Positions 7,407 through 31,208 of a stretch of 64,000 nucleotides of DNA are shown piece by piece (the stretch's first letter is position 1; each line of letters starts with the position of its first letter). The DNA lies in assembly GCA_965214705.1 (NCBI GenBank), contig CBDCCI010000002.1:256001-320000 (forward strand). Reading direction: 5' to 3'. The notes beneath the pieces are model-generated. The model was not told where the DNA came from and did not search any database. It saw nothing but the letters and a program-made list of their open reading frames with translations. Origin of the DNA: Alphaproteobacteria bacterium. GTDB lineage: Bacteria; Pseudomonadota; Alphaproteobacteria; UBA828. The position numbers and the translations under genes are program-made.

Positions 7407-7496
7407 GTAAGCGGTATCGAGGCCCCATACTTCCAACGCATCTGATTTCGCGGCTGACTCTTGGCCTTGGCAAGGAGCCTTGGAGGAGGCATCGCG

Positions 7497-8593: not shown

Positions 8594-9739
8594 GTGGTTT
8601 CGGCGGCGCTGGCGACCCTGCAGGCGGAGCTTGCCGAGGAGCGCGTGGCGCGCCGTGCGACCGAAGCAGCCCTATGCGAAGCGGAGCAGGCACGCGGCGC
8701 GGCGGAGGCGGCGAGGCAGACGGCGGAAGCGCGGGCGGCACGGCTGGAGGCCGAGAACGCGCACAGCGCGGAGCAGATCAGCCGGCTTGAGCATCTCAAC
8801 AAGGAGCTCAGGAAGGCGCTGTTCGGTCCGCGCTCCGAGAAGCTCAACGAGGACGAGCGCCAGCTTACGTTCGAGGAGTTTTGGGCGGCGATCGCTGAAG
8901 CCGGCGGTCGGCCCGAGGCAGATGACCAGGAGCAGGACGAGGGGGCTGGCGGCAAGCGCCGGCGGCGCTCTTCCCGGGGGTCGCGCAGCGGGGTGCGCTT
9001 CGGGCCCCAGGTCGACCGGCGCGAGGAGGTGATCGAGCCGGACACGATCATGTGCCCCTGCGGCTGCGGCGAGATGACGAAGATCGGCGAGGACCGCAGC
9101 GAGCGGCTGGACTATGAGCCGGCGAAGTTCACCGTCATCGAGACCGTGCGCCCCCGCTACGCCTGCAACAAGTGCAAGGGCGGCGGGGTGGTGCAGGCGT
9201 CGGCGCCCGCCGCTCTGGTCGAGGGCGGCCTTCCCACCGAGGCTCTTCTGGCGCAGGTGCTGATCGCGAAGTACGGCGATCATTGCCCGCTCTACCGTCA
9301 GTCGCAGATTTACGAGCGCTCGGGGATCGAGGTTCACCGTGCGACGCTGGCGACCTGGGTGGGGCAGGCGTCGTTTCACCTGCGCCCCGTGGTCGCTTGC
9401 CTGAAGGATGAGCTGAAGAAGTCGGATCACCTGGGTCTGGACGAGACCACGATCCGCGTTCTCGACCCGGGCCGGGGCAAGACGAAGACGGGCTACATGT
9501 GGACCCTTGTGCGCGACGAGCGCCACTGGAGCGGCGCCGACCCGCCGGGCGTTGTCTATCGCTATGAGCCCGGTCGCGGCGGCAAGTATGGCGCCAGGCT
9601 CTTGAAGGGCTTTTCGGGGACGGTGCAGCTCGACGCCTACTCGGGCCACAACATCCTGGCGCGGCCGGACCGGCCCGGCGGCCCCGTGACGCGGGCTCTG
9701 TGCTGGGCGCACGTCAGGCGCAAGCTGAAAGAGGTGTGA
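8594..9739 (+). pseudogene. tnpC: IS66 transposase TnpC, 5' part (interrupted)
   Basis: FGPRSEK, CPCGC/C-KC zinc finger, KYGDHCPLYRQ, LDETT, DAYSG, CWAHVRRK; breaks at the AAAGAGGTGT repeat. Confidence 0.92.
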
Positions 9740-9800
9740 ACCTTATAGTCGCTATTTGCGGTACCATTGCGCTGACGTAGGGTTGCAGTCTTCTCCTGTA

Positions 9801-9820
9801 TCGTTGCTATAATACAACGA
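9801..9820 (+). promoter_or_regulatory. Candidate extended -10 promoter inside an inverted repeat
   Basis: TGcTATAAT (9805-9813) within TCGTTG-N8-CAACGA. Confidence 0.4.
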
Positions 9821-10459
9821 CTTAGGGTCCTTGTCAAGGGCGGATTGGGCCGGATCGAATAACACAGATGTGGATCGTGTGTCGTTGAGGAGTTGCATTT
9901 GGGGATGTCAATATGGAATCAGGCTTGTGACATCGGTGTGGTCCAGTTGGCGCGGAAGCTCGAATCGGTGAGCAACATAGAAACGATATGACATATCCCG
10001 GTCATGAGAACTATCGTAGGCATATTCGTGAATCAACTTCCGGATGCAGGATCCACTGTGTCGCAACCGCTGCAAGCCCTTTCGTGCGGATGGCGGCGAT
10101 GAGGGAGGATGCCAGCGGACGCCGCCAGCGCGCGGTGATGAGACCGATGCGGAGTGGCAACGGATCGGCCGGGCAGCTGCGGCGAGCGGCATGGATCGCG
10201 CTTCGTGATCCATCGCGCGCTGGACCGGGACTCTCTGGGGCCGGAGGTTCTGCGCCGGGCGGTGCGCGAGATGCTGGTGCTGTCCAGGCTGGAGAGGGCG
10301 GCTGCGCGAGACCGGCGCCGGAGAAGACTGGGCAGACGCCTGTGACGCGGTGGACGAATGGATCGACCGGGAGGGCATGCTGGACCGGCTGACCAATCCC
10401 GGCGCGGCGAACCGCTGGAAGGCGGTGGGTCCGGCTGAGGAGGACGGGTAGTGACGGAG

Positions 10460-10640
10460 GAGGCGGGGCGGCCCACCGCCTCCGCCATGCCGACGGATAT
10501 CGTGCCGGGAGCGCAGCCGAGGTCGAGAAGGCGTATGTCGCGCTTGAGGTGCGGCAGCAGATGAGCGGCGTTCACAGCCGCGTTCCTGCGTTCGAGCACT
10601 TTCTGGAATTCGGGGCCGTGACCTCCATTGTGCAGGTGAG
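10460..10640 (-). pseudogene. Class I SAM-dependent methyltransferase fragment
   Basis: AAHLLPHLKRDIRLLDLGCAPGTISVGMAEAV motif I segment with no complete gene. Confidence 0.55.
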
Positions 10641-10934
10641 CCTCGACGCGTCCGGAGTCTCGTTGGGGCCCATCGACAGCTCCCTGTCTGAGTTGCCTCG
10701 GCATTGCTGCGCGCCACCGAATGCACCGAACCGCATCCCGCGGTTGCATGCACCGGCGCGCAGCCGGCGTCGCCAAGCGCTCCCATGTACCCGGCTGCCT
10801 ATAGATGCCGACAGATTCTGCGATCGCAGACGCCTTGGATGGACGAACAAGAAAATGAATTCCGCCTGCATCATGCGACCGGATTTGACGCATCTCTCTG
10901 CCAGACTGCCTCCGCATCACATATGGAGACAGTC

Positions 10935-13019
10935 ATGCCGACCGCCTATGAACGCCATCTCATAGCATCTTATCTCTCCAACGCTGCGGGGCGGCTTCAC
11001 CACCGCGACCGGGAAGCGTCCGCCCTGGCGGAATGGATCGCCGACCGCGACAACCGTTCTGCGTACGACCGAAGGAAGGACTTGTACTCTCGCCTTGTTC
11101 GTCTGGACCTCGAACTTGAGGAGCCCGTATCCGCACGACAGTTGCGCTGCTTGAAACAGGTCCTGCGCGATGAGTGCGCGGCCACGAAGGGAACGAAGCT
11201 CGACCGGACCGGGCAACGCCTCCGCCGCCTTGGGGAGGCCACGGGCCTCGAGGCCATCGACGTCGACATCCTGGAGCTGCTGCTGCGCTACCGGACGCAG
11301 CCGGTGATCGAGTCACTGGTCGACGACATCTTCCTCCACGCCAACAGGCGGGGGATACGTCTCAACGTCAGGGGCACGGCCGTTTCCACCCTTCTCGGCG
11401 TATCCGCCAGCGCCGTTCAGCGCCGTCTCACGACCGGGGCGCCGCTGGTGAGCTCGGGGCTTGTCGCCATCGACAGCGACGGCGACGTGACGGCCGTCGA
11501 CCGGCTGCGGCGGCTGGCCACGGTTCCCGACAGCGCCGGCCTCGACGTGAACCGCCTGCTGCTCGATGCCGCGCCCCCGAGCGAGCTTGAGTGGTCCGAC
11601 TTCGATCACATCGCCGAGGGGCGCGATCATATCGAGCGGCTGATCCGGGGCGCACTGCACGCCGGAGCGGCGGGCGTGAACGTGCTCCTCTACGGCCCGC
11701 CGGGAACCGGCAAGACGGAGTTTTGCAAGGTGCTGTCCGGGCGGCTCGGCGTAACCCTCCACAGCGTCGGAGAAGCCGACGACGACGGCGACGAGCCCAG
11801 CCGCCGCGAGCGGCTGCAGGAGCTTCGGCTCGCCCAGCGACTTCTCAGGCGCAACCGCGGCTCGCTGCTGCTGTTCGACGAGATGGAGGACCTGCTGTCC
11901 GACCACGCCGCCCGCGGACTCTTCCTTTTCGGGCAGCCGCTCTTCGCCGGCGCCCGCGACGGAAGCTCCAAGGTGTACATGCACAGGCTGCTCGAACGGG
12001 CGCCCGCGCCGACGCTCTGGACAATGAACGATGCCCGTTCGATCAGCCAGGCGCTCCTGCGGCGCATGATGTTCGCGCTGGAGCTGCGCCCGCCGACGGC
12101 GGCGGTGAGGGCGCGCATCTGGACCCGGCAGCTTGAGCATCACGGCATTGAGGCCGGGCCGGACGAGGCCCATGCCCTTGCGCAGGAGTTCGCCGCGACC
12201 CCCGGCGTTGCGGCCGGCGCCACCGCCGCGGCGCAGATCTCCGGCGGCGGCATCGACACGGTCCGGCGCGGGGTACTCGGCCTGTCCCGGGTGCTCTCCT
12301 GCGAGATGCCGTCCCAGGGAACGCCGCCGCTCTTCGACCCCGCGCTGATCCGGGCCGATATCGACCCGGTCGCGCTCGCCGACAGCCTCGCCGCCGCCGG
12401 GAGCCTGCGCTTCTCCCTCTGCCTTCAGGGGCCGCCCGGCACCGGCAAGAGCGCCTTCGTCCGCTATCTCGCCGAGCGCATGGGGCTGGAGGTGATGCAG
12501 AAGAGGGCCTCGGACCTGACGTCCATGTGGGTCGGGGAGACCGAGAAGGAGATCGCTGGCGCTTTTGCCGAGGCCCGCGACACCGGCGCCTTCCTGGTCT
12601 TTGACGAGGCGGATTCGCTGCTCGCCGACCGCCGCTTCGCCCGGCAGGGCTGGGAAGTCAGCCGGGTGAACGAGATGCTGACCTGGATGGAGAGCCATCC
12701 TCTGCCCTTCGCCTGCACCACCAACTTCGCCGAGCACCTGGACGCGGCAACGCTGAGGCGCTTCGTGTTCAAGGTTGCGCTCGACTACCTCTCGCCGGAG
12801 CAGGTCGAGACGGCGTTCCGGGCATACTTCGGTGTCACGCCGCCGGCGCGGGCCGCGGCGCTCACCGCGCTGACCCCCGGCGATTTCGCGGTGGTGCGGA
12901 AGAAGGCCGAATTCCTCGGCCGGCTGGAGGATCCTGACGCGCTGGCCGCGATGTTGAGCGCCGAGTGCGGCGCCAAGCCGGACCGGCCCCGACCGGTCGG
13001 CTTCAACTCTTCGCTGTAG
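10935..13019 (+). CDS. Double-AAA+ ATPase
   Basis: Two modules: GPPGTGKT/LLFDEME and GPPGTGKS/LVFDEADS/TTN/LRRF; C-terminal PVGF; GGAG RBS before ATG 10935. Confidence 0.9.
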   Translation: MPTAYERHLIASYLSNAAGRLHHRDREASALAEWIADRDNRSAYDRRKDLYSRLVRLDLELEEPVSARQLRCLKQVLRDECAATKGTKLDRTGQRLRRLGEATGLEAIDVDILELLLRYRTQPVIESLVDDIFLHANRRGIRLNVRGTAVSTLLGVSASAVQRRLTTGAPLVSSGLVAIDSDGDVTAVDRLRRLATVPDSAGLDVNRLLLDAAPPSELEWSDFDHIAEGRDHIERLIRGALHAGAAGVNVLLYGPPGTGKTEFCKVLSGRLGVTLHSVGEADDDGDEPSRRERLQELRLAQRLLRRNRGSLLLFDEMEDLLSDHAARGLFLFGQPLFAGARDGSSKVYMHRLLERAPAPTLWTMNDARSISQALLRRMMFALELRPPTAAVRARIWTRQLEHHGIEAGPDEAHALAQEFAATPGVAAGATAAAQISGGGIDTVRRGVLGLSRVLSCEMPSQGTPPLFDPALIRADIDPVALADSLAAAGSLRFSLCLQGPPGTGKSAFVRYLAERMGLEVMQKRASDLTSMWVGETEKEIAGAFAEARDTGAFLVFDEADSLLADRRFARQGWEVSRVNEMLTWMESHPLPFACTTNFAEHLDAATLRRFVFKVALDYLSPEQVETAFRAYFGVTPPARAAALTALTPGDFAVVRKKAEFLGRLEDPDALAAMLSAECGAKPDRPRPVGFNSSL

Positions 13020-13106
13020 CGGCGCAAGCCGTCCCGGGTTCCGTGTCCCGCCATCCCCCGCTAGGGTGACGGGCGCGGAACCCGCAGGCTCGGGAGAGGA
13101 GGCCCG

Positions 13107-14120
13107 GTGCGCTACGAGGGGCTGACGAACATCGTGAAGCTGGCCATTCGCATGCAGGGTCTGCGCGGCGGCATGACGCTCGACGGCATCCGGTCGGAGT
13201 TCGGCGTCAGCCGGCGCACGGCCGAGCGCATGCGCGACGCGGTCGAGCAGGCCTTCGGACCGCTGGAGATTGCCGAGAGCGACGACAACAGGCGCCATTG
13301 GCGGCTGCGCTCGGACGCGCTCCGCCGTCTCGCCCGGGTCTCGGCCGCCGAGCTGGCGGACCTCGCCGCCGCGGCCGACACCCTGGACGGCACCGGATTC
13401 GGCGAGCGCGCATCGGCGCTGCGGGAGTTGGACACCAGGCTGCGGGCCACCCTGCACGCGGACTCGCTCGCTCGCATCGAGGCCGATATCGAGGCGCTGA
13501 CGCAAGCCGAGGGCCTCGCCATGCGTCCGGGTCCCAGGCCGCAGGTGGACAAGGGTCTGCTCGCCATTCTCCGCGAGGCGATCGTCGGCTGCCGCTTGGT
13601 CGAGTTCCGCTACCTGTCTCAGTCCACGGGACGGCGCAGCCGCCAACTGATCGAGCCTTACGGGCTGCTCTACGGCAACCGCCCCTTCCTGGTGGGGCGG
13701 ACCGGCTGGACTCATGGCATGCGGCTGTGGCGTCTCGCGAACATGAGGAAGGCGCGCGTGACGGGCGAGAGCTTCGCCCGCGACCCGGACTTCGATCTGG
13801 AGGCCTATGCCCGGCGTTCCTTCGGCACCTTCCAGGAGGAACCGGTGGACGTGGTGCTGCGCTTCGCCGCCGGGGCGAAGCGGGACGCGTCCGCATTCCT
13901 CTTCCACCCCGGTCAGTCCGCCGAAGAGAACGCCGACGGCACGCTCACGGTCCGCTTCGCCGCCGGCGGCATCGACGAGATGTGCTGGCACCTCGTCACC
14001 TGGGGCGAGAGCGTCACCGTGGAAGAACCCGACCGCCTCCGCCACCGCCTCGCCGCCATGTGCTCGGCGCTGGCCGCGCATCATGGCCTCGATCAAACAG
14101 CGCCGGGAGATCGCAGATGA
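13107..14120 (+). CDS. HTH-WYL-WCX transcriptional regulator
   Basis: wHTH FGVSRRTAERMRD; VEFRY...IEPYGL...PFLVG...WRLANM; WCX FHPGQ...WGESVTVEEP. Confidence 0.9.
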   Translation: MRYEGLTNIVKLAIRMQGLRGGMTLDGIRSEFGVSRRTAERMRDAVEQAFGPLEIAESDDNRRHWRLRSDALRRLARVSAAELADLAAAADTLDGTGFGERASALRELDTRLRATLHADSLARIEADIEALTQAEGLAMRPGPRPQVDKGLLAILREAIVGCRLVEFRYLSQSTGRRSRQLIEPYGLLYGNRPFLVGRTGWTHGMRLWRLANMRKARVTGESFARDPDFDLEAYARRSFGTFQEEPVDVVLRFAAGAKRDASAFLFHPGQSAEENADGTLTVRFAAGGIDEMCWHLVTWGESVTVEEPDRLRHRLAAMCSALAAHHGLDQTAPGDRR

Positions 14121-14154
14121 AATACCGCGTGACACTGGCGGACGCACCGCCCGA
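14117..14154 (+). pseudogene. Small ORF overlapping the WYL stop codon, split by ISAs1 copy B (continues after 16296)
   Basis: ATGA overlap; MKYRVTLADAPP rejoins DSPFRDPEEF across the TSD. Confidence 0.45.
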
Positions 14155-14386
14155 CACGGCAAATTCGTTCTGATTTTCGCCGCTGGCTGACGGCACTCAA
14201 TCATGCTCCACCCGCTTTCGTTGAGGACCTTGCAGGGCTGGCCACCGGATTTGGCCGCCATCGCGCCGCCGCATAGCGCTGCCCTTGGCCGCGAGGGTCG
14301 AGCACGGCTTCATCTGAACATGACCGCTCGCCCCCGGCGTTCCGAGGGTTGGCGTCGCGGCGATGGACGCGGCCCGGAGGGGGCGG

Positions 14387-15128
14387 TCAGCTGGGCGCTG
14401 TCCGCGGAGCGACGTTGTCGGTCATTTTCAGGAAGTCGAGAAGCCGCCTCGGTTTCCTGGCCAGATTGCGCATGGTCTCGGCGACAGCGAGCCCGCGCCC
14501 CTTGATAACGCCGATGGCGAAGCGCCGCAGCAGGGTCATGTTCTCCGGACCGTAGCCTGAACGGATACGGCATCGGTCCTCGTCGAAGCTCCAGTCGAGG
14601 ATGTGATGGGCCGCCTCGATGGTCCAGTGCCCGCGATTGAGGGTGAGCAGGCGTTCCGGCGATGCGGCCTGCGCACTCAGGCTGGTGACGCCGTAAGCCG
14701 TCTCGCAGCTTCTCTTCCCGGATTTGACGTGCCGGGTTTCGCGCCGCACGGCGAAGACCTGTCCGACGCCGGGGAAGTTGAGGTAGTCGTTGAGCTCGCT
14801 GGAGACCCAGATGGAGCGCCGCTCGCGGCGGCCGTGCTCGGGCTTGGGGCTCTCGTCCGCGAAGTCCGGCGCGCGGCCTGCGATGGCCTCATCGAGAGTG
14901 AGCCGGATGTCGTCGAGCAAGGTGGGCTGGTTGCCCTTGACGGTGAACAGATAGTCGGCGCCGCGGTCGCGCAGATAGGAGGCCAGCGCGCGCTGGGTGA
15001 GCAGAGCATCGGCGGTGACGGTGCGGCCCGCGATGTCGGGCACCGTCTCGAGCAGGGGGATGATGGTGCCGATCTCGTTGGTGCGCTTCTCCCCGTCGTC
15101 GGCGTCGGGCCTCATGCCGACTTTTTTT
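14387..15128 (-). CDS. ISAs1 transposase C-terminal part (frameshifted)
   Basis: KRTNEI, TADALLTQ, VKGNQP, HGRRERR, RGHWTIE, FDEDRCRIR. Confidence 0.85.
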
Positions 15129-16200
15129 GACCCCAGGGCGCCTTGGTGTCGTGGCCTATGATGCCGAGCACATGAGCCTGCGTGCCATCGTCATCGATGG
15201 CGCCGCGGATGGTCTTGCCGTCGATGGCCAGCGCGCTGTCGCCCGAGCCGTGGGCCTCGTGCCAGGCCCTGAGCGCGGCGTCGAGCTGGACCGGATCGAC
15301 GCGGATCAGCAGGCTGCGCATCGCCGACAGGCTGGGCGGGCGGTACCGGCCGTCGCGGCGGCGCACGCGGAAGCGCTGCAGCACCCTGGGACTGAGGTCG
15401 TCGACCCATTCGCTGATCGCCTTGTAGCCGCGCATGCCACAGAACGTCGCGGCGGCGGCGAGCGCCAGTACCGTCGGCAGCGCATGGCGCCGGCCCTGGC
15501 GGCGGCGGGGATCGTCGATGCCCTGGAAGAACTCGGGGAGGGATCGCATCTGTGCGGCGGTGAGCGTCATCTTCGGCACTCCATGTCGCAGGCGGGGGTC
15601 GAGATCGTCGGCCCGCAGCCGGGCCCGCGCGGTGCGGGACAGGGGAAGAAGGAACACGCGCTTGGGCCGTGCGTGCTCGCTGTAGCCGGCCCCACCGCGA
15701 GCGAAGCCGCGGGTGCGCCCGACCTCGATCCAGTTGGCCGCGCGGTAGACCGTGCCCCGGAAGAGCGCCGGGTCCACGAACGTCTCCGCCAGCAGCACGT
15801 CGTGACCGAAGCGGATCGGCCAATCCCTCACCAGACGGCGCGTGCACAAAGACAGCACCCGCGAGCCGAGATTGCGTGGACCGCCGGGGAGGATCAGGAA
15901 GCGCGAGTTGTTGGTGACCAGGTGAAGACGACCGAACTGAAGGCCGCGGTCCCAGCCAATCCAGCGATCGCGCGCACCGCACTTCAGCGCCGCTGCCGAG
16001 AAGACCGCCAACGCCAGCCATCGCCCTCGATGGTGCGCGACATAGCGCACGGTCTCGCCCATCCCCGGCACCGCGCCGAGGTAGTGGTGTGTCTGCATCA
16101 CGTCGCGGAAGCGGGCCTCGTCCTCCGCCGCCACGATGTCGACCACCACCTCCGATAGAGCTGCCACAGCTTGCCAGTCCCCACGGCTGCCTCGCGGCAC
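15112..16200 (-). CDS. DUF4338 + ISAs1 transposase N-terminus
   Basis: Same motifs as copy A; ends just after the A7 run. Confidence 0.85.
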   Translation of the reverse strand: MPRGSRGDWQAVAALSEVVVDIVAAEDEARFRDVMQTHHYLGAVPGMGETVRYVAHHRGRWLALAVFSAAALKCGARDRWIGWDRGLQFGRLHLVTNNSRFLILPGGPRNLGSRVLSLCTRRLVRDWPIRFGHDVLLAETFVDPALFRGTVYRAANWIEVGRTRGFARGGAGYSEHARPKRVFLLPLSRTARARLRADDLDPRLRHGVPKMTLTAAQMRSLPEFFQGIDDPRRRQGRRHALPTVLALAAAATFCGMRGYKAISEWVDDLSPRVLQRFRVRRRDGRYRPPSLSAMRSLLIRVDPVQLDAALRAWHEAHGSGDSALAIDGKTIRGAIDDDGTQAHVLGIIGHDTKAPWGQKKSA

Positions 16201-16618
16201 TCATATCAGGACACGGGGAGCAAGTCCACTATTTCAGGCAACTCGCTGGCCGGCCTAGCCAAAGGCTGAAGTACAAATCCGCCCTGCACCGCCCGATTCT
16301 CCCTTCCGGGACCCCGAGGAGTTCGAGACATGGGAAGAAACCCCGGACCGCATTTTTTTCTCGCCACGAGGGCCGAGCGCAGATGGTCGGCGATAGCACT
16401 CGAGTCCCGGCGCATGATCCCTGTTAGCGGCCCGATGTGGCGCGACGCAGGATGGCCGCTCCCGGGGATATGCCAGCCGCGAAGCGATCGACAGCGAAAC
16501 CGCCAGGTTGGCCGCCACGGAGAAAACCGGGAAGCAGACCCGCTCACCCATATGGCGCCTCCTGCGGCGCGGACGCGCGAAGGCCGCAAAGGACTGGAAC
16601 TGGAAGAAGGAAACTATC

Positions 16619-17155: not shown

Positions 17156-17264
17156 GGCATGACCCTGTCGGCGCAGACTTGTGCGTCGAGTGATTGCCTG
17201 TCGGTTGGGGCCGCCGCCGCGTGAACCAGCTGCACCCGGGACATGTTGCGTGAGGATTGAAGAG

Positions 17265-19919: not shown

Positions 19920-22900
19920 TGGCCGGCGGGCGACTGGATCTCTCCGACGACGCCGCCCGGCACGCCGCCATTGCGGTCCACGACCGCTCCTTCCTTGTCG
20001 AGGCCGGCGCAGGCTCGGGCAAGACCGCGGTCATGGCGGGCCGTATCACCATGCTGCTGGCAGGCGGCGCCGAGCCGAGGTCGATCGCCGCCGTAACGTT
20101 CACCGAGTTCGCCGCGAGCGAGTTGCTGATCCGGGTACGCGCCTTCGTGAGCAGACTTGCTGTCGGCGACATCCCGGTCGAGCTTCGGGTGGCCCTGCCG
20201 GACGGCCTGTCGGAAGAGCAGCGCGGCAACCTCGCCGAGGCGGACGCGGCGCTCGACGAGATGACCTGCTCGACCATTCACGGTTTCTGCCAGCGCCTCA
20301 TCGCGCCCTATCCGGTCGAGGCCGACATCGACCCCGGCGCCGCCGTCATGGACCGCGACCAGGCGGAACTCTCCTTCGCCGAGATCGTCGACGCCTGGCT
20401 GCGGGAGGAATTGGACGGCGGGGCGAGCGGCCTGCTCCCCGAGTTGGTCCTGCGCAATCCAGGCGCAACCGTCGGGCTGATCCGCACCGTCCTCGACCAT
20501 CTCCGCCGCCATCGGGAATTCTCCCCCTACGAACTACAGGACATGGATCAGCTCGCGACGGGGTTTCGGGCAGCGGTAGGCGACTTCGGTACGTTCCTCG
20601 ACGAGGCGGAGGCCGAGGAGCCGGAGACCGCCACCATCGCCGGCCACTTTCAGTCGCTGGCCGGGGAGGTCGCCGCCGCGCTCCCGGTCGAAACGCCGGC
20701 CGCGCTCGTCGCGCTGTTGCTCATGGCGCCCCACGACGATCTCTGCACCGGATCGGGCTCCCTTCGTGCGTATCGCAAGAAGGGAAAGTGGGGAGCGGCT
20801 GCGAGGCGCGCTGGCCTGGCCAAGGCCGATGCCGATCGGCTGAACGACGCCGCCAGTGCTCGCTACGCCCGTTGCTGCGCGACGTGGACGGCCTTCCAGC
20901 AGGCCATCGCCACGCATGTGCTCGCCGATCTCGTGCCCCTGGTCCAACCCATCGTGGGCCTCTTCCGCGAGCACAAGCGCGCCGCCGCGCTGCTCGACTT
21001 CGACGACCTGATATTCTCGGCGCGCGATCTTCTGCACGGCCACGACGACGTGCGCCGAGCGCTGGCCGCGCGCTATCGCCACGTCCTCGTCGACGAGTTC
21101 CAGGACACCGACCCGCTCCAAACCGAGATACTCTGGCGGCTCTGCGGCGAGCCGCCTCCCGGTGGCGACTCCGACGACTGGGCGGCATTTGTACTGCGTC
21201 CGGGCGCGCTCTTCCTCGTCGGCGATCCAAAGCAGGCCATCTACCGCTTCCGCGGCGCCGACATCGCGGCCTATGTCGGGGCGCGGGAGGCGTTTCGGGT
21301 GCAGACGGCGGACGCCGTGCTCTCCATCGCCACCAACTTCCGCTCCTGCGCGCCGATTACCGAATACGTGAACGAGCGCTTCGAGACCGCGCTCTCCGGG
21401 GAGAACGGCCAGCCCGGCTTCCAGGCCCTCGATCCCTTCAGGCCCGCGCGGGAGGAAGGACCGTCGGTCGCCGCGCTGGACGTCGAGGTGGCTGACGAGA
21501 ACGGCAAGGCATCGGCTGCCGGACAGCGGGACGGCGAGGCCGAGGCCGTCGCCGACATGTGCGCGCGCCTGATCGGCAGCGAGACCATTCTTGACCCCGA
21601 GAGCGATGTGCAACGCTCGTGCCGTGCCGGCGACATCGCCTTGCTGGCGCCGACCGGAACCGACCTCTGGCGTTACGAGGAGGCGTTGGAGCAGCGCGGC
21701 ATCCCGGTCGCCACCCAGGCCGGCAAGGGTCTCTACCGGCGCCAGGAGATCCAGGACCTTATCGCCGTGACCCGCGTGTTCGCCGACCGCCGCGACACGC
21801 TCGCGCTCGGCGCGCTGCTGCGCGGGCCGCTGGTGGGGCTCACCGAGGAAGAGCTGCTCGACATCGTCTGGGCCTTGCCGCGTGCCGACGATGCCCCCGG
21901 CGATCTGCCGCGCCTCGACCTGCGTGTCGCCCCGAAAGCCATCGAGAACCCTCTCGCGCGGGACATCATAGAGAAGCTTCAGGCCCTGCAACGCCGGGTG
22001 AACGCGACCACGCCGCATGCGCTTCTCTCGCAGGCCGTCGACGTGCTGCGCGTCCGGCCCATCCTGCTGCGGCGTCATCGGGGCCAGGCCGAGCGCGCAT
22101 TGGCCAATGTCGATCTCTATCTCAGTTTCAGCCGGGCCTATGCGGTGCGGGGCTTGCGCGCCTTCGCGGAGGCAATGACGGCCGCGTGGAGCGACGAGGC
22201 CCGCGCTGTGGAAGGCCGCCCCGACGCCCAGGAGGACGCGGTGGCGCTCTACACCATGCACGCCGCCAAGGGACTGGAGTGGCCCATCGTCGTGCCCATC
22301 AACACGATGACGCGGGTGAGGACGCCCGGGAGCGCCGTCACCGACCGCGCCAGCGGGCGATTCTATTGCCCCGTGCTCGGCGTGGCCCCGACGGGCCACG
22401 AGGCGGCCCGCAAAGACGAGGGGGAAGAACTCGGTTGCGAACGGGTGCGCCTTTGGTACGTCGCAGCCACGCGGGCGAGAGAACTCCTCGTTCTGCCCAG
22501 GCTCGATGTCGCTGCCGCCGATTCGGCCTGGCTCTCTGTCGTCGAATTGGGATTAGAGGCGCTACCCGCTCTCGACCTGGAGCGTCTCCCGCCCGAGATG
22601 GATGCTGGCGAGCCTGAGGCGGAAAACGCGCAGACGCGCGAGTCCTTCGCCGCCGAGGCTGCCGCGATCGCCGCGCGCACGCACCGCATCGTCTGGCGCG
22701 CGCCGAGCCGGGACGAGGACACCGCCCGGCCGGTGCTGTTGGAGGAACAGCCCGCCATCCTCGCGACCGACGGCGATGGCGCGCCGGCGGATGGCAATGC
22801 CGCGGCCGCGATCCAGGGCGGGCGCGAGCGCGGCACCATCCTACACAAGCTGATCGAGGAGGTGCTTACCGGCGAAACCGCTGAAGAGGAGACGGCCGTT

Positions 22901-23323
22901 CCCGCCCGCGCCGAGATTCTGATCCGGGCCCTGGGCCGACCCGTGACCGACGATCCCGCGCAGGGCCTTGCGCCGGCGGAGCTGGCGGGCTGTGTGCTCC
23001 GCGCCCTTGCGCTGCCCGAGGTCGCCGCTCTCAGGCCGGGGCTCGTGCCGGAGCTCCCGGTCTACGGCTCCACTGAGACCGGCAGCCAGGAGGAAGCTAC
23101 GCACGGCATCGTCGACGCCATCGCCTTCGATAAGGACGGCGCGCCGAAGGTCGTCATCGACTGGAAGAGCGACGTCGACCCCACACCCGACACCCTCGAC
23201 CACTACCGAGCCCAGATCCGCGCCTACCTCGACATGACCGGCGCGGCGCGTGGCTTGGTTGTGTTCGTAACGTCCGGAGTCGTAGACTCGATTATGCGGG
23301 AGGACGGGGACTCTGGACATTGA
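19919..23323 (+). CDS. AddA-like UvrD/REP helicase with C-terminal nuclease
   Basis: EAGAGSGKT, TIHGFC, VDEFQDT, VGDPKQAIYRFRGA, TMHAAKGLEW, YVAATRA, GIVD...IDWKS; coupled to the previous gene. Confidence 0.9.
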   Translation: MAGGRLDLSDDAARHAAIAVHDRSFLVEAGAGSGKTAVMAGRITMLLAGGAEPRSIAAVTFTEFAASELLIRVRAFVSRLAVGDIPVELRVALPDGLSEEQRGNLAEADAALDEMTCSTIHGFCQRLIAPYPVEADIDPGAAVMDRDQAELSFAEIVDAWLREELDGGASGLLPELVLRNPGATVGLIRTVLDHLRRHREFSPYELQDMDQLATGFRAAVGDFGTFLDEAEAEEPETATIAGHFQSLAGEVAAALPVETPAALVALLLMAPHDDLCTGSGSLRAYRKKGKWGAAARRAGLAKADADRLNDAASARYARCCATWTAFQQAIATHVLADLVPLVQPIVGLFREHKRAAALLDFDDLIFSARDLLHGHDDVRRALAARYRHVLVDEFQDTDPLQTEILWRLCGEPPPGGDSDDWAAFVLRPGALFLVGDPKQAIYRFRGADIAAYVGAREAFRVQTADAVLSIATNFRSCAPITEYVNERFETALSGENGQPGFQALDPFRPAREEGPSVAALDVEVADENGKASAAGQRDGEAEAVADMCARLIGSETILDPESDVQRSCRAGDIALLAPTGTDLWRYEEALEQRGIPVATQAGKGLYRRQEIQDLIAVTRVFADRRDTLALGALLRGPLVGLTEEELLDIVWALPRADDAPGDLPRLDLRVAPKAIENPLARDIIEKLQALQRRVNATTPHALLSQAVDVLRVRPILLRRHRGQAERALANVDLYLSFSRAYAVRGLRAFAEAMTAAWSDEARAVEGRPDAQEDAVALYTMHAAKGLEWPIVVPINTMTRVRTPGSAVTDRASGRFYCPVLGVAPTGHEAARKDEGEELGCERVRLWYVAATRARELLVLPRLDVAAADSAWLSVVELGLEALPALDLERLPPEMDAGEPEAENAQTRESFAAEAAAIAARTHRIVWRAPSRDEDTARPVLLEEQPAILATDGDGAPADGNAAAAIQGGRERGTILHKLIEEVLTGETAEEETAVPARAEILIRALGRPVTDDPAQGLAPAELAGCVLRALALPEVAALRPGLVPELPVYGSTETGSQEEATHGIVDAIAFDKDGAPKVVIDWKSDVDPTPDTLDHYRAQIRAYLDMTGAARGLVVFVTSGVVDSIMREDGDSGH

Positions 23324-23376
23324 ATACAAACGTGCCGAGCCAGCGTGTAGTCTCTCGCCTGGTCGGAACGACCGCA

Positions 23377-25055
23377 GGGTGTAGGTCTGGCATGGTGATC
23401 GTAAGTCATTGATTTAGCGCGATTGGCGGGTGGCCGTAGGCAGCCAGAATCGGGTTTTCGTGACAATCGGCCGGTGCAGGGCCGGATTTTGTCACAACGG
23501 CGGCATCCAGCAGTGGTGGGTGGGAACGCTCCGCACCGCGAGATGCGGTAGGATGCCGCGCCGACAACCCAACATCAGACCCAACATCAGGAGCGTTCCC
23601 ATGCCAGTGTCGCAGTCTCTCATCGCCTCGTCCATCGACCTTTTGGGCCTGCCTGCCGAAGTCGCCGAAGCGGTCGCCCAGGTGGTGGAGTTCTGTCGCG
23701 AACAGGCTGGGTCTGACCCGTCTGCCGAGACGTTCGAAACGGTTGAGACGGGGCTGCGGGACGCCATGAACGGCTTGGGTTGCAAGCTCCTTGGGGCCTT
23801 CGCCGAGAGCCGCGACGACGGTGCGAGCCGGATCGAGCGCGACGGACAGAGCTGGGTCCGGGTGGCGGCGACGCCGAAGACGATCATGACGACGCTCGGT
23901 CCCGTGACCTATCGGCGTGCGCGCTATCGCAGCGGCGCGAGCAGCACGTCGCTGGTGCCGGTGGACGAGAGCCTGGGCCTCATCGACGACTACCTGACGC
24001 GGCCGGCGGCGCAGCTCGGGCTGATGATGATGGGCCACTGTACGCCGCGTGAAGCGGAGGAGTTCTTCGCGAAAATGGGCGGAATGACGCCGTCGGTGAG
24101 CACGCTGCAGCGCCTGGCCCTGAGCATGCATGAGCACTGGGAGAGCGTCGCCCCGGAGACGCTGGCCAGCATCCGTGAAACCCAGGGCATACCGCCCGAT
24201 GCGGTCACCGCGTCCGTCTCCCTTGACGGCGTCATGGTGGCGCTGCGGGCCGGCGAGGACGGCCGTGCCGAGGCGTGCTGGCGCGAGGCCTCTTGCGGCA
24301 CGGTCTCCTTCCACGACGCCGAGGGCCAACGGCTGAAGACCCTCTATCTCGGCCGTATGCCCGAGAGCGGCAAGGCCGCGCTGAAAGCGCAACTTGCAAG
24401 CGAGGTCGCCCATATCCGCCGTGTGAGCCCGAAGATCAGGATCGGCGCCGTCGCCGACGGGGCCGCCGACAACTGGACCTTCCTCGAAAGCCTCTCGCCC
24501 GAGACCGAGGTCATCGACTTCTGGCACGCTTGCGAGCATCTCCGCGTGGCCTCTGACCATGCGGTGGCGCGCCACTGGTTCGAGAAGCACCGCGAAATCC
24601 TGCGCCACGACCCCCGCGGCGTCGACAAGGTGATCCGGGCACTGCGCTACCTCCTGGACAGGGCAAAGGGGGACCCGGCCGAGATCGAGCGCGAGCTGGC
24701 CTTCTTCCGAAAGCACCGCCATCGGATGCGCTACCACGCCCTGAAGGAAGAGGGCATCGCCATCGGCTCGGGTGTGGTCGAGGCGGCCTGCAAGACCCTC
24801 GTCGCGCAGCGCTTGAAACGCTCGGGCATGCGCTGGCGGATCGACGGCGGGCAGGCGGTTCTGACCTTCCGCGCCCTGATCAAATCCGGCCTCTTCGACC
24901 GGGCATGGGATGCGCTCATGGACGCCCGATCCGGACCAGCTAACGACAACATCAGCCCAACCGAAGTCCTGGCACTCGCTGCTTGACCAAAATGAACCAG
25001 CCCATATCCTTTAGCGCCATCACGACTGGCATATCGCCATACGAGAATCACACCC
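23377..25055 (+). mobile_element. ISKra4-family IS
   Basis: IRs GGGTGTAGGTCTGGCATGG / CCATACGAGAATCACACCC; 8-bp TSD CGACCGCA at 23369-23376 and 25056-25063. Confidence 0.88.
23601..24986 (+). CDS. ISKra4 (UPF0236-like) DDE transposase
   Basis: SLDG, ADGA--NW, IDFWHACEHL, IGSGVVEAACK--V--RLK-SGMRW. Confidence 0.9.
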   Translation: MPVSQSLIASSIDLLGLPAEVAEAVAQVVEFCREQAGSDPSAETFETVETGLRDAMNGLGCKLLGAFAESRDDGASRIERDGQSWVRVAATPKTIMTTLGPVTYRRARYRSGASSTSLVPVDESLGLIDDYLTRPAAQLGLMMMGHCTPREAEEFFAKMGGMTPSVSTLQRLALSMHEHWESVAPETLASIRETQGIPPDAVTASVSLDGVMVALRAGEDGRAEACWREASCGTVSFHDAEGQRLKTLYLGRMPESGKAALKAQLASEVAHIRRVSPKIRIGAVADGAADNWTFLESLSPETEVIDFWHACEHLRVASDHAVARHWFEKHREILRHDPRGVDKVIRALRYLLDRAKGDPAEIERELAFFRKHRHRMRYHALKEEGIAIGSGVVEAACKTLVAQRLKRSGMRWRIDGGQAVLTFRALIKSGLFDRAWDALMDARSGPANDNISPTEVLALAA

Positions 25056-25062
25056 CGACCGC

Positions 25063-25917: not shown

Positions 25918-26006
25918 CACTACATCGCCTCTCGTCACCTGAGGCTCGCGTGACTTCAGCGGGTTGTGCTTCACTTTCTTGTTGTCAACGAGCACGGAGG
26001 CACAAC

Positions 26007-26084
26007 ATGTGGACTGAAAACACTCTGCCGAAGTATGACCAGGAGAAGTTGCGTTACGCAATCGATGTTACCGACGATGAATGA
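26007..26084 (+). pseudogene. IS5-family transposase N-terminal remnant
   Basis: MWTENTLPKYDQEKLRYAIDVTDDE resembles the MWT...RYASDLTDAEW start. Confidence 0.5.
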
Positions 26085-26178
26085 CGTTGTTCCCACACGT
26101 CTTCCCCGCAGAGAGTAAATCTCATATCGGGGTGTCCATTCCAAAATCTGCGACTCACCCTGCATCGCAGCCCTATTT

Positions 26179-26718
26179 CTAACCGATCCTCTTGTTGTAT
26201 TTGGGCAACCGATTATGACGAATCAGGAAATCGGCTTGAAGAGTCATCTCAACATCCGTTGGTTGATGCTCTTCCGGCAAACGTGTGAACTTTCCCCTGT
26301 CACGATCAGAAGGAGTCCAAACCGCTACCGAAAGACGATTCCTCTGTCGCTCCCAACGCTCCTTAAATTCTTGACACCGTTTTATGTACTCTTTGTACGC
26401 CGCTTTTGCTTTTTTCTTCCCATATATCTCACGCAATTCAGCGATTTTCTCCCGAAAGTTGGGGTTTATTTTCGACTCGTGAAATGAATTTCCTCCCGCA
26501 TGAGAGTCGAAATAATATTCGCAAGCGTTTTCAAAAGCATTCAGCCTTTCCCACAAATTGGTTGCGCGACCAATATATATGATGTTCCTGCATAGGATGT
26601 CTGGCTGCCTGTTGCGTCGTACACCTCTGGCAATAAGATAAACGCCCCGGCTGTTGAGTTGTTTCTTCAGTTCATTCCGTGCCCTAAAGGCGCACCAATC
26701 AGACATATCGAGCTTCAT
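26179..26718 (-). CDS. GIY-YIG-like nuclease
   Basis: GVYLI ... IIYIGRATNLWERL; AT-rich; C-terminal E..L....PKYN. Confidence 0.65.
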   Translation of the reverse strand: MKLDMSDWCAFRARNELKKQLNSRGVYLIARGVRRNRQPDILCRNIIYIGRATNLWERLNAFENACEYYFDSHAGGNSFHESKINPNFREKIAELREIYGKKKAKAAYKEYIKRCQEFKERWERQRNRLSVAVWTPSDRDRGKFTRLPEEHQPTDVEMTLQADFLIRHNRLPKYNKRIG

Positions 26719-27024
26719 GTTTGGTAAACCTCCTTCAATGCTGAGACCATCCCGATCCGATGAAACTGGTCCCGCAACTGCGCACCTGAAAATCCGCAGG
26801 CGCCAAGCCGGATTACCACAATCCCTCACGTCCCAATACTCGACGAAATCAGACCTGGGCAGTTACCAATTCATAATGCTTCCGTCAACCGCAAACGGCG
26901 GAACGGCAGCGAGTTCCGCCGGAGTTCGATGTGCGCGGGCACGGGCACGGTGCCAGCGTCCAAAGCCTTGCCGGCCCCAGAGGCGATGTCAAGATTGCCG
27001 GCGATCACGACAAGGTTCGCGTGG

Positions 27025-27285
27025 CAGGGCAGCGCTCGATGGCTTCTACGTCGTCCGCACCAGCCTGGCCGCGTGCGCGCCTGCGTCCTGCTGTACATGC
27101 TCGCCTGCCACGTCGAATGGCACATGCGCCGAAAGCGCGCTCCCATCCTGTTCGACGAGGACAACCCGGCCGGCGCCGAAGCCGCGCACGCCTCCATCGT
27201 CGCTCCGGCAAAGCCCTCGCCTTCGGCCCGTCGCAAGGCCGCCGGCAAGCGCACGCCGGACGGCGCGCCGGTGCATGCCTTTGGC
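27025..27285 (+). pseudogene. IS1634-family transposase C-terminal remnant
   Basis: ALDGFYVVRTSL and VLLYMLACHVEWHMR---APILFDE in broken frames. Confidence 0.65.
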
Positions 27286-27306
27286 AATGAACCGTCGCGT
27301 GATTCG

Positions 27307-28464
27307 TCACCGCGGCGGACAAGCGTCCTGTACCATGATGTCTGCGATGGCCTGCCCGACCCTCTCGGCCGCTTCCTCGATGTCGCGGTCTCCGAGATGA
27401 GCATAGCGCAGCGTCATGCTTACGTCGGAATGCCCAAGCATGCGCGAGACGACCGGGATCGGTACGCCGTTCATCACCGCGTGGCTGGCGTGCGTGTGGC
27501 GGAGATCGTGAAGGCGAACGTCCTCGATGCCCGCCTCGCGCCGGGCGCGATTCCAGAACGCAAGGTTGTGGCTGCGGGGGCGGGCGGGATCTCGTGGGGA
27601 CGGAAAGACGAAGGGGCTTGCGCCGCGCGGCCGGCGTTCGAGAATACGACGGGCATGGGTATTGAGGGGAACGATCCTGGGCCCGGTCTTGCCGTCGGCG
27701 AGGACCAGCCTGTCGCGATCGACTTCCGACCAGCGCAGCCCGACGATCTCGCTCCTGCGGCATCCGGTGAGCAGCAGGAGCCGGATGATGTCCGCCTGCT
27801 CGCGGCTGCTGTTGCGGGTCTGCCTGTCCAGGATCCGATGGAGCCTGGCGATCTCGTCGCGGGACAGAAAGCGCGTGAGCACCCGTCTCGGGTTCCTTTT
27901 CACGGCCCGCGCGGGGTTCGTTTCAAGGTGGCCGCGGGCGATTGCGAAGTTGACGATCTGCGAGAGAAGATCGAGCGCGCGATTGGCATTGCCGGGCGCG
28001 ATCCGGCTGAACCGGTCGAACCACCGCGTGATGTGCGCCGGGGTGATGCGGTCGAGCGGCTTCGAGCCGAAGGCGGGCAGGAGCTGGCGGTCGAGCAGGG
28101 ACTGGACGCCCTTTCTCGTGGACGGCTTGTATCCGTCGAAGTGGGCCTCCTTCCACGCGCCCTCGACGAAGTCGCGGAACAGCGGCGCAGCAGGCTTGGG
28201 CGCTCCGGTCGCTTCCAAGTCTGCCTTGCGCGCGTGACATTCCCGGCGGACCTCCGCCACGGACTTCAGCGACACCGGGCCGAGAGTGACCCGCCTCGAC
28301 CGGCCGCCGGTGTTCCCCAGCAGGACATAGCTCTTCCCGCCGGTGGGCCGGACCCGGACCCCGAGGCCGACAAGATGATTATCCCAGACCGCGTACTCCC
28401 GCTCGCGGGGGCGGAGGCTGGCGATGGCGCGGTCGGTGAGCCGCATCCGTTCCCTGCCGGCCAT
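27307..28464 (-). CDS. Tyrosine integrase with arm-binding domain (pair 1, second gene)
   Basis: VWD---GLGVRV-P-G-K; TGCRRSEI, KTG, RLHDLRHT, LGH....T-RY. Confidence 0.93.
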   Translation of the reverse strand: MAGRERMRLTDRAIASLRPREREYAVWDNHLVGLGVRVRPTGGKSYVLLGNTGGRSRRVTLGPVSLKSVAEVRRECHARKADLEATGAPKPAAPLFRDFVEGAWKEAHFDGYKPSTRKGVQSLLDRQLLPAFGSKPLDRITPAHITRWFDRFSRIAPGNANRALDLLSQIVNFAIARGHLETNPARAVKRNPRRVLTRFLSRDEIARLHRILDRQTRNSSREQADIIRLLLLTGCRRSEIVGLRWSEVDRDRLVLADGKTGPRIVPLNTHARRILERRPRGASPFVFPSPRDPARPRSHNLAFWNRARREAGIEDVRLHDLRHTHASHAVMNGVPIPVVSRMLGHSDVSMTLRYAHLGDRDIEEAAERVGQAIADIMVQDACPPR

Positions 28465-28467
28465 GGA

Positions 28468-29592
28468 TCAACTCTCCACCAGCGCGTCGCCGACGGTCTC
28501 GGCCGCCTCGCGCACCATGGCGTCGGCAAGGTGGGTATATTTGAGCGTGGTTTCCGCGTTGCGGTGTCCGAGCAGCCGGCCGATGGCGAGGACGGAGACG
28601 TTTTCCTTCAAGGCGAGGGTCGCGTTGGTATGGCGGAGATCGTGGAGCCGGACGTCGCGAAGACCGGCCTCGGCGCGAACCTCGTACCAGAACCGGTTCA
28701 GCCAGCCCGTGCTGCGCGGCCCTGCGGCCTGCGGCGCCGGGAAGACCCAGCGGCCCTTTCGTTCGAGCGTATTGAGCACCTTGCGGGCCGGCGCGGACAG
28801 CCAGACGGTTCTGGGTCCGGTCTTGGAATCGCGCAGGAACAGATGCCCCTCGCGGTAGTCGGCCCAGCGGAGCGTCAGGATCTCGCTCTTGCGGCATCCG
28901 GTCAGCAGAAGAAGGCGGACGATCGCAGCCCGCTCCGGGCAGCGCTCCTCGTGGGCCGAGAGCACCGCCGAGAGGCGTCGGATTTCCTCGTCGGACAGGA
29001 AGCGTTCCCGCCCCTTGCGGCGATATCTGCGGATGCCCCGGCATGGGTTGGAGCCTTCGGGCCTGAGCCCCATCGCCTCGGCCTCGCGCATGATGACGGA
29101 GAGCACCGGCATCGAGCGGTCGGCGGCGACCGGGGTGGCGCGGAGCGCGGCGAACCAGCGCCGGACGTCCTTGCCGTCGATGCCGGCGATCTGCCGTCCC
29201 GAGAAATGGGGCAGGATCTGGTTCTTGAGGTAGCAGCGGTTGACCTCGAGGGTTCCGGTCTTCCAGAGGCGCCGGTGACGCTCGAACACGGTTTCGGCGA
29301 CGGCCTCGAAGAGGGTCTCGGCGGGATCGCGGGGGGCGTCCCCGCCCCGCCGGATGGCGGCGAGCGTCTCGCGTGCGCGCGAGCGCGCATTCTCCACGCT
29401 CATGGTGCCGGCGTCGCCTATGATCTTCCAGACCCGCTCGCCGCAGTGCTGGCAGTGGACGAAGAAGCGCTTGCGGCCCGAGGGCAGGACACGGACGCCG
29501 AAGCCCCTGAGCTTGCCGTCGCGGACGTCGCGTGCGGCGTTGCGGGGCTTCAGCGCGCTCACGCGGGCGTCGGTGAGGGCGGGTCTGGTCAT
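28468..29592 (-). CDS. Tyrosine integrase with arm-binding domain (pair 1, first gene)
   Basis: GFGVRVLPSG; TGCRKSEI, KTG, RLHDLRHT, LGH....TLKY. Confidence 0.93.
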   Translation of the reverse strand: MTRPALTDARVSALKPRNAARDVRDGKLRGFGVRVLPSGRKRFFVHCQHCGERVWKIIGDAGTMSVENARSRARETLAAIRRGGDAPRDPAETLFEAVAETVFERHRRLWKTGTLEVNRCYLKNQILPHFSGRQIAGIDGKDVRRWFAALRATPVAADRSMPVLSVIMREAEAMGLRPEGSNPCRGIRRYRRKGRERFLSDEEIRRLSAVLSAHEERCPERAAIVRLLLLTGCRKSEILTLRWADYREGHLFLRDSKTGPRTVWLSAPARKVLNTLERKGRWVFPAPQAAGPRSTGWLNRFWYEVRAEAGLRDVRLHDLRHTNATLALKENVSVLAIGRLLGHRNAETTLKYTHLADAMVREAAETVGDALVES

Positions 29593-29721
29593 TCGCGGTC
29601 TCCCGGTTGCGGTTGCAGCCGGGGAACAGGGGGTTGCCCCATGCGTCCGGATGCAACAAGATGAGGGAGAGAAAACAACCCTGCGTCAGTCAGTTAGCAC
29701 CGAAGGTGCGCAAAGAGGTGT

Positions 29722-30980: not shown

Positions 30981-31208
30981 AACGAAGCCGCTACGCGGAG
31001 TTAGCGGCGTAGAGTTCATTCATTTCCGAGGCGTCGCGGGTGCCGTTTGTTCTGTGCGTTCGCTTCCCGGTTGCGTCAGTGGCGCTCCGCCCGTCGGGTG
31101 GCGGATCCCCAGCAGCCTCCCGATCACCAGTGGTTAGTATCGACCCCTGCGACGGACCGTCGCCGGATCGGTCCGGCGGCGCGCCGTCGCGATCCAGGGA
31201 GATCGATA

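Follow-up and report, generated by a model that had tools for sequence, protein, structure and literature searches.

Integrative Elements with Paired Arm-Type Integrases and a Variable, GGTGT-Anchored Core in an Alphaproteobacterial Genome

An IS66 Transposase Gene Interrupted by a 20-kb Element

The window analysed here is a 64,000-bp stretch (positions 256001-320000 of contig C3) of an alphaproteobacterial genome of 7.9 Mb in three contigs, with a GC content of 66.8%. It carries a 19,974-bp element, at window positions 9738-29711, which interrupts the transposase gene tnpC of an insertion sequence (IS) of the IS66 family and bears at its right end two adjacent genes, intA and intB, for arm-type tyrosine integrases. 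The element belongs to a multi-copy family, the existence and anatomy of which are well supported. The evidence presented below concerns the ends of these elements, the short core repeated at their junctions, and the way in which this core may take part in the choice of target.

The element is bounded by a 10-bp direct repeat, AAAGAGGTGT, at 9728-9737 and 29712-29721 (Table 1). Seven other copies of the same IS66 reside in the genome, with 100% and 99% identity over the two flanks; in each of them the flanks are contiguous and overlap by exactly 10 bases, a single AAAGAGGTGT. The empty site in the intact IS66 reads GCTG-AAAGAGGTGT-ACGA, and the intact tnpC, as seen in copy L002, is an open reading frame (ORF) of 582 amino acids, broken here between positions 162 and 163 of the Pfam profile DDE_Tnp_IS66. 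The original prediction, made from the window sequence, that removal of one repeat copy restores tnpC, is thus matched by uninterrupted sites in seven IS66 copies. Since the intact IS66 copies already possess the GGTGT of the repeat, these five bases are assigned to the target, and the 99-100% identity of the interrupted IS66 to the intact copies points to a recent insertion of the window copy. In a second IS66 subfamily, 93% identical and with 36 copies, AAAGAGGTAT (with GGTAT) stands where the hit subfamily has AAAGAGGTGT, and no insertion is seen there, which is consistent with a requirement for GGTGT, as far as a single insertion event can tell.

Both ends contain the 14-bp subterminal inverted repeat of the original prediction, CTGACGTAGGGTTG facing CAACCCTGCGTCAG with 13 of 14 positions matching, at unequal distances from the ends (34 nt on the left and 22 nt on the right). 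The repeat continues inward through a TCTYCTCC block to GTTGC. The predicted scatter of GTTGC/GCAAC motifs was likewise found, with counts of 3 + 1 in the left 260 bp and 4 + 1 in the right 260 bp.

Table 1. Features of the element and of the interrupted IS66, in window coordinates.
Feature	Position	Strand	Basis and remarks
IS66 tnpA / tnpB	7461-8099 / 8096-8446		Upstream of tnpC; TnpB_IS66 and HTH_Tnp_1 (Pfam)
IS66 tnpC, N-terminal part (target gene)	8594..9737	+	Pfam zf-IS66, LZ_Tnp_IS66, DDE_Tnp_IS66 positions 2-162
attL core, left 10-bp copy AAAGAGGTGT	9728..9737		Single-copy in intact IS66 paralogues
Left end	9738..10098	+	Inverted repeat CTGACGTAGGGTTG 9772-9785; TCTTCTCC block; GTTGC at 9782, 9803, 9892
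NikA/TraJ-like ribbon-helix-helix pseudogene (family's first such protein)	10099..10438	+	ORF cluster, indels relative to intact copies
Cargo, two AAA+ domains (IetA/IteA-like ATPase domain)	10704..13019	+	Pfam AAA 4.8e-31; PADLOC IetA 5e-25
Cargo, WYL/WCX-domain regulator	13107..14120	+	Domain searches
Secondary IS insertion (DDE_Tnp_1 plus DDE_Tnp_1_assoc/DruA-like ORFs)	14144..16285	-	Multi-copy; genome copies 95-99% identity
Cargo, PD-(D/E)XK nuclease-domain protein (AddB-like position)	17181..19919	+	Pfam PDDEXK_1 7e-21
Cargo, UvrD-family helicase with C-terminal PD-(D/E)XK (divergent AddA-like)	19904..23323	+	Pfam
Secondary IS insertion, UPF0236 family	23377..25055	+	About 25 near-identical copies in genome
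intB, arm-type tyrosine integrase, 385 aa	27307..28464	-	Pfam Arm-DNA-bind_3, Phage_int_M, Phage_integrase
intA, arm-type tyrosine integrase, 374 aa	28468..29592	-	Pfam; stop 3 nt before intB start
Right end	29593..29711	-	GTTGC motifs; inverted repeat CAACCCTGCGTCAG 29676-29689; palindrome GCACC-GAA-GGTGC 29697-29709; terminal GC
attR core, right 10-bp copy AAAGAGGTGT	29712..29721		Sequence
IS66 tnpC, C-terminal part	29722..30239	+	Pfam DDE_Tnp_IS66 positions 163-284, DDE_Tnp_IS66_C

The Family in the Genome

When the element was compared with its own genome by BLAST, only 2.4 kb recurred, namely the integrase genes and the right end. This part is present in about 17 copies at 72-85% identity, all ending at window position 29710/29711, and tblastn detected dozens of IntA-IntB pairs. 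A right-end regular expression, TAGnACCGnAGGTGCGn, has 37 matches in the genome, 36 of them true right ends and one a chance match. Every one of the 36 is followed by five variable bases and then GGTGT (CGTGT in two). Left ends were sought with an nhmmer profile, which gave 31 matches, 26 of them preceded by NNNNNGGTGT. Each left end was then paired with the nearest downstream right end in the same orientation; from 27 candidate pairs, 20 were retained as paired elements, which range from 4.1 kb to 76.5 kb.

The original prediction spoke of a paired-integrase element class with relaxed targeting that inserts into other mobile elements. The class itself is borne out by 36 right ends with a stereotyped intA-intB operon, by the end motif in congeneric genomes and by orthologues on plasmids (both described below). 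The targeting is indeed relaxed by comparison with tRNA-specific islands: the right flanks are of 32 distinct kinds and the left flanks of 25, yet the targeting is not free, being anchored at GGTGT, with the five preceding bases tracking the element's own core. The predicted insertion into mobile elements agrees with the finding that 15 of the 20 paired elements lie in sequences that BLAST also finds uninterrupted elsewhere in the genome, mostly insertion sequences.

The ends share more than their terminal bases. GTTGCA is 16-17 fold enriched at both ends across the family, at fixed distances from them, and the family right end closes in the palindrome GCACC-N3-GGTGC. In the GCAC... subfamily of left ends, GTGC to the left of the core and GCAC to its right stand 12 nt apart; the centre of this interval falls between core positions 4 and 5, where the mismatches between junctions concentrate (see below). 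This spacing may hint at the location of the exchanged segment.

At the left end, a cluster of small ORFs is common to 27 elements at 31-100% identity, and its intact orthologues give weak NikA-like and TraJ-like matches (E about 1e-4, under the curated cut-offs). In the elements at C2:554437 and C3:909016 the small NikA-like genes are followed by a TrwC relaxase/helicase of 1,598 amino acids. A full-length TrwC occurs in seven of the 20 paired elements and a NikA-like gene in 16. The ancestral layout is that of an integrative mobilizable element (IME), with NikA-like genes and TrwC relaxase on the left and intB-intA on the right. The smallest member (L073, G000:C1:3377404-3381547, 4.1 kb) holds an ORF with an endonuclease/exonuclease/phosphatase (EEP) domain (Pfam, E = 1.8e-8), a left end and intB-intA only. 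The codon periodicity of substitutions had pointed to the left 1 kb as non-coding, a reading overturned by ORF clustering and alignment, which revealed a small gene that is frameshifted in the reference copy. Rfam returned nothing in the left 1 kb of the element, and tblastx of the left 3 kb was unusable, being swamped by noise in this 67% GC genome.

Within this multi-copy paired-integrase family, the window copy stands as a recent insertion that lacks the relaxase but retains two intact integrases. Whether it can still move is a separate matter, and it may be an immobile relic of a past family expansion that cannot excise, a possibility that we regard as real, if somewhat doubtful. Its NikA-like gene has suffered three frameshifting deletions (1, 4 and 2 nt after 10141, 10195 and 10295, relative to seven intact copies); the intact orthologue of this pseudogene matches the Pfam NikA-like profile at E = 1.5e-4, below the curated cut-off. 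Family homology of the window's left end ceases near 10500, no TrwC match was found inside the element, and the cargo has received two later IS insertions. The runs were examined as contigs: the cargo is present in contigs of four runs from two studies, with no joins of right to left end and no contigs bridging the junctions, and because the flanks are multi-copy IS66, these contigs are uninformative on excision. On the other side, both integrase ORFs and both ends are intact, the repeat is perfect, the near-identity of the interrupted IS66 to intact copies speaks for recent insertion, and related elements in the same cell could provide the missing factors in trans.

The Integrase Pair and Its Distribution

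IntA and IntB both contain the Pfam domains Arm-DNA-bind_3 and Phage_integrase. The motifs GxRxxE, HxLRH and [LM]x[YF][TA]H were taken to stand for the catalytic Arg, His-x-x-Arg and Tyr, and all three are present in both window integrases, as expected from the earlier reading of two adjacent, catalytically intact integrases at one end. The arrangement is constant across the family: intA starts 120 bp from the right end and stops 3-4 nt before the start of intB. By a strict regular expression, two ORFs of at least 340 amino acids with all three motifs are found at 17 of the 36 right ends, with constant start and stop spacing; about 23 of the 36 have two full-length integrase ORFs, the others being cut by insertions or truncated.

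The two proteins are 39% identical to each other, and each is about 40% identical to its positional counterpart in a pair on the megaplasmid of Shewanella oneidensis MR-1. The best match of IntA is the first gene of that pair (273 bits versus 171 for the second), and that of IntB is the second (260 bits versus 169 for the first). Against the NCBIfam models of XerC and XerD they score only 44-92 bits, with cut-offs of about 330. At least 11 plasmid records, from Shewanella, Vibrio, Aliivibrio, Photobacterium, Paracoccus, Novosphingobium and Sphingorhabdus, have the best matches of IntA and IntB side by side, with the order unchanged.

Genomic islands with a single arm-type integrase are the rule, which lends some weight to the view that one integrase alone moves the element, the other being a redundant paralogue, a resolvase or the server of another att site (e.g., in tandem-array accretion). 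Tandem duplication of integrase genes does occur in this very window, as the pair at 47452-50037 shows. We nevertheless consider this view unlikely, as IntA and IntB are only 39% identical and each is nearer to its positional Shewanella oneidensis counterpart, order and adjacency are kept in plasmids of seven genera, the 3-4 nt spacing is fixed, and both ORFs are intact at 17 of the 36 ends by the strict count. We infer joint action of IntA and IntB from this conservation alone.

The pair at 47452-50037 (+) also consists of arm-type integrases. Its members share 54-55% identity and are only 34-39% identical to IntA and IntB, which marks it as a recent duplication in its own right. The genome has about 20 similar pairs at other places, and a shift in composition near 47400-47420 may mark the end of an element carrying this pair.

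Outside this genome the ends were sought with a stringent end motif. Of 20 further genomes of the genus, 15 contain it, and of 28 from other genera in the order none does. It matches 29 times in the window's genome and 0-5 times in each of the others; a reversed control pattern has no match in any genome. One of the congeneric genomes (G047) holds a 9.7-kb element with the perfect repeat GATTGGGTGT. In other genomes of the genus, 20 loci, each of 20 kb, had no match to the left-end profile, and a search of these loci based on the core produced one convincing pair (L096) and two doubtful ones (L080, L090), the rest being at chance level. A search with IntA returned 56 loci at 66-80% identity, mostly from metagenome-assembled genomes labelled Alphaproteobacteria or Defluviicoccus. 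The strict end pattern is present in 17 of them; many of the other 39 show an ACACC-N5-(N)CGCACC layout with small changes in spacing, as judged by eye and not counted, and the left-end profile had no match in the 56 loci.

A further such element lies in Shewanella baltica, where a filled plasmid (NC_017570.1) can be compared with an empty one (NC_009661.1). Between genes that adjoin in NC_009661.1, the former carries a 6.8-kb block with intA, intB, a DNA methyltransferase, a BstXI-family endonuclease and a regulator. Its junctions share the 13 bp CCACACCCCACGC, the complement of which, GCGTGGGGTGTGG, contains GGTGT. Because the Shewanella baltica element shares both the integrase pair and the anchor motif, these are older than the window's genus. 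This element (L101, NC_017570.1 20077-26897) resides on a conjugative plasmid of the MOBF/MPF_F type, with which NC_009661.1 is otherwise collinear.

The Core at the Junctions

Among the 20 left/right pairs, nine have perfect 10-bp repeats, six have one mismatch and five have two. The 16 mismatches are distributed over core positions 1-10 as 2, 0, 2, 6, 5, 1, 0, 0, 0 and 0, so that 11 of the 16 fall at positions 4-5. Of all 884 combinations of left and right ends, true pairs included, only 16.8% differ at no more than two of the five variable bases. The target logo holds information only at GGTGT and in the lack of G at position 5. Some cores recur in unrelated surroundings: CGTCAGGTGT occurs four times with unrelated flanks, and GTTAAGGTGT with three different left flanks. 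Right ends with less than 5% DNA divergence differ on average at 1.86 of the five core bases (n = 21), and those with more than 20% divergence at 3.6-3.75.

In four of the 11 imperfect pairs, the uninterrupted paralogous target matches one junction only. At C2:640517 the paralogous target CCGGT equals attL, and attR reads CCGAT; at C3:1780854 the target CGAGC equals attR, and attL reads CGCGA; at C1:1883550 the target ACGAT equals attR, and attL reads ACGCT; at C1:1337670 the target matches attL only. The non-target version at C1:1883550, ACGCT, is the core found on both sides of a sister element, C3:909016, whose TrwC is shared at about 90% identity.

The 10-bp repeat is therefore open to two readings. 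It is probably, from the pattern of mismatches and targets, a crossover core and not a target-site duplication. In the alternative, the integrases or another nuclease would make a 10-nt staggered cut at NNNNN-GGTGT and repair would copy the target; the five variable bases would then come from the target only, and lineage-specific cores would reflect lineage-specific site preference. This would account for the perfect repeat in nine of the 20 pairs, for a window repeat that equals its target exactly, for the use of the same hot spots by different left-end subfamilies, and for a window core unrelated to that of its nearest relative. We still find a true duplication quite unlikely. More than half of the pairs are imperfect, with mismatches heaped at positions 4-5 and none in GGTGT, and random later mutation would not yield such a pattern where the IS copies of the genome are 99.9% identical. 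One junction can equal the paralogous target and the other the core of a sister element. The conserved module has no DDE or HUH enzyme, its 4.1-kb member holding only an EEP-domain ORF and two integrases, and tyrosine recombinases are not known to create duplications.

A DDE-type transposon with TG...CA ends and the 8-bp duplication AAGAGGTG, also raised by the original prediction, is extremely improbable, being refuted by the alignment of the family. The junctions of this single copy can be parsed so, but after GGTGCG(C/T) any of the four bases is found among the 36 paralogous right ends, which leaves no conserved CA terminus. The inverted repeats lie inside the termini and at unequal distances from them, the repeat is imperfect in 11 of the 20 pairs, and the sole internal DDE genes belong to the two secondary IS, which are multi-copy elsewhere and one of which is missing in other samples.

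A Proposed Mechanism

If the 10-bp repeat is a crossover core, the element would carry this core and test it against the target by homology, the core being anchored at GGTGT and drifting with use. We think this rather likely, judging from the sequences of the junctions. The element would excise as a circle by recombination of attL with attR inside the 10-bp core, and in the circle a single core copy would join the right end (...GCACC-N3-GGTGCGY) to the left end (G...). Integration would proceed by conservative strand exchange at a GGTGT preceded by about five bases identical, or nearly so, to the element's own core. Homology would be checked near the edges of the exchanged segment, and central mismatches, at positions 4-5, would be tolerated. 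Heterology so tolerated could end up at either junction, and attL and attR would then differ; because of this difference, the core could drift between insertions and retarget the element.

XerC and XerD are two paralogous tyrosine recombinases, each with its own half-site in an asymmetric core. By analogy, IntA and IntB might act together on the asymmetric core, each responsible for one half-site or strand pair. The GTTGCA motifs and the subterminal inverted repeats are likely to be arm or accessory sites, and the NikA-like proteins and TrwC relaxase of other members may serve transfer and possibly the control of excision.

Several observations weigh against such a scheme. The "empty sites" of other family members are paralogues, not true pre-insertion alleles, and seven of the 27 candidate pairs had 3-10 mismatches and were set aside as mispaired (left ends that were nested, degenerate or over 150 kb away from the right end). 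The correlation between relatedness and core has a Spearman rho of only 0.09, reached by 61 of 2000 permutations, in a test whose shared-target filter passed some same-target pairs and in which related copies are not independent. The closest right-end relative of the window copy, C1:383938 (4.3% DNA distance), has the core GGCAC versus AAAGA, different at five of five positions. That the nearest relative carries an unrelated core speaks against simple drift: either cores can be replaced as a whole or modules are reassorted. With an IntB that is only 69% identical, this relative points to reassortment. Three left-end subfamilies share the hot spot TTGTCGGTGT, which could reflect a site preference determined by protein. 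In other genomes of the genus, a confident left end within 20 kb is missing from 19 of the 20 loci. The run contigs contain no circle junction, empty donor site or strand-exchange product, although contigs cannot show the absence of a circle.

We tentatively extend the homology-tested core to a wider claim, which we put somewhat short of an even chance: the IntA-IntB elements may form a widespread, unnamed class in Alpha- and Gammaproteobacteria, in which a heteromeric integrase pair reads only GGTGT, the adjacent core bases pick the target by pairing, and imperfect integration rewrites the core, allowing transposon-like spread (36 copies here) by conservative recombination. The proposed mechanism, if correct, would explain transposon-like multiplication in a site-specific recombinase system, and the combination of a protein-read anchor, GGTGT, with a DNA-read, self-updating guide segment would represent natural retargeting of integration. 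The work also provides diagnostic ends and a name for two paired genes whose label in annotation pipelines is just "site-specific integrase". The pair is found on conjugative plasmids of Shewanella, Vibrio, Photobacterium and sphingomonads, with cargo such as a restriction-modification system, and in the window's genome the family is a major source of insertions into other mobile DNA.

Cargo and Other Features of the Window

Among the cargo proteins, the AAA+ protein matches the NCBIfam model IteA at 1.2e-24, far under the cut-off, and its true start probably lies downstream of the mechanical ORF start; the AddA-like protein scores 275 bits with addA_alphas, against a cut-off of 861. Two further cargo ORFs had no match in searches with domain and family profiles. 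Contigs of runs X1, X4 and X5 show the element without the IS at 14144-16285, position 14143 being joined to 16286; the joint has 11 ambiguous bases, consistent with an 11-bp duplication. One ORF of the IS at 14144-16285 matches both Pfam DruA (Druantia) and DDE_Tnp_1_assoc, and a second such ORF is located upstream of the IS66, at 5938-7122; the DruA model may pick up a transposase-associated domain.

Beyond the interrupted IS66, a module in which a Xer-like integrase (Phage_int_SAM_4) precedes an IS91-family Y2 transposase is present in two copies, at 31047-33335 and 38791-41079 (+). Between them lies an ORF of 1,733 amino acids (33562-38763, -) with no Pfam match. A protein of 1,770 amino acids, encoded at 53363-58675 (-), has cold-shock domains together with an AAA-type NTPase and, at its C-terminus, a PRTase-CE domain.

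Comparison with Known Systems

Elements that use more than one tyrosine recombinase have been described, and Tn554, the strand-biased circularizing elements (SE) and GInt resemble the IntA-IntB elements in being non-DDE, in having imperfect (sub)terminal inverted repeats and in using several sites (PMC10214605). Their modules are given there as intA-tfp-intB-srap for SE, ginABCD for GInt and tnpABC, with one large recombinase, for Tn554; SE was found only in Gammaproteobacteria, with 1-2 copies per replicon, and their 6-bp spacers carry the donor footprint on one side and the target fingerprint on the other (PMC10214605). By contrast, intA and intB are 3 nt apart here, both proteins are of about 380 amino acids and arm-binding, no conserved tfp- or srap-like gene is present, and none of the 20 pairs differs at more than two positions of the 10-mer, nine being identical. 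RIT and BIM elements also have multi-gene recombinase modules and occur in Alpha- and Betaproteobacteria (PMC3414803, PMC8138268). RIT (recombinase in trio) is described as having three simple (Xer-like) recombinases and BIM one recombinase with an unrelated conserved protein (PMC3414803), for which reason BIM was rejected as a known two-gene module. As described there, neither has arm-type pairs, unlike the two genes found here, both of which are arm-type. A term search of the main text of a tyrosine recombinase survey found no mention of tandem or paired integrases (PMC8138268). The full-text literature, in a coverage that leaves out most subscription journals, contained no description of adjacent arm-type integrase pairs, and the IntA-IntB elements are apparently undescribed.

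In general layout, the closest kind is the IMEs and islands with a P4-type integrase. These likewise have Arm-DNA-bind_3 and Phage_integrase proteins at one end, variable cargo, a short core identical at both junctions with an exact empty site, and TrwC relaxase with NikA-like genes, which in our family are found in seven of the 20 paired members. The differences are that here two different integrases stand in a fixed operon in place of one, that the target is no tRNA gene or single locus, with at least 32 distinct right flanks, and that there are 36 copies per genome with a core that varies except for GGTGT.

With XerC/XerD at dif, the IntA-IntB elements would share the use of two paralogous recombinases on an asymmetric core, as in the model proposed above. 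Xer proteins are host-encoded, lack an arm-binding domain and act at dif, a fixed 28-bp site, whereas IntA and IntB are borne by the element and have arm-binding domains.

The closest mechanistic parallel, by analogy, is the integration of phage lambda at secondary sites, together with its site-affinity mutants. Lambda secondary att sites, saf mutants and the secondary sites of ICEBs1 all involve integration at overlap-like sites, and heterology in a lambda-type overlap makes attL differ from attR and can alter the core that is carried next. In lambda and ICEBs1 such integration is a rare laboratory event in systems with a fixed primary site, whereas in the IntA-IntB elements it would be the normal lifestyle, with no primary site at all.

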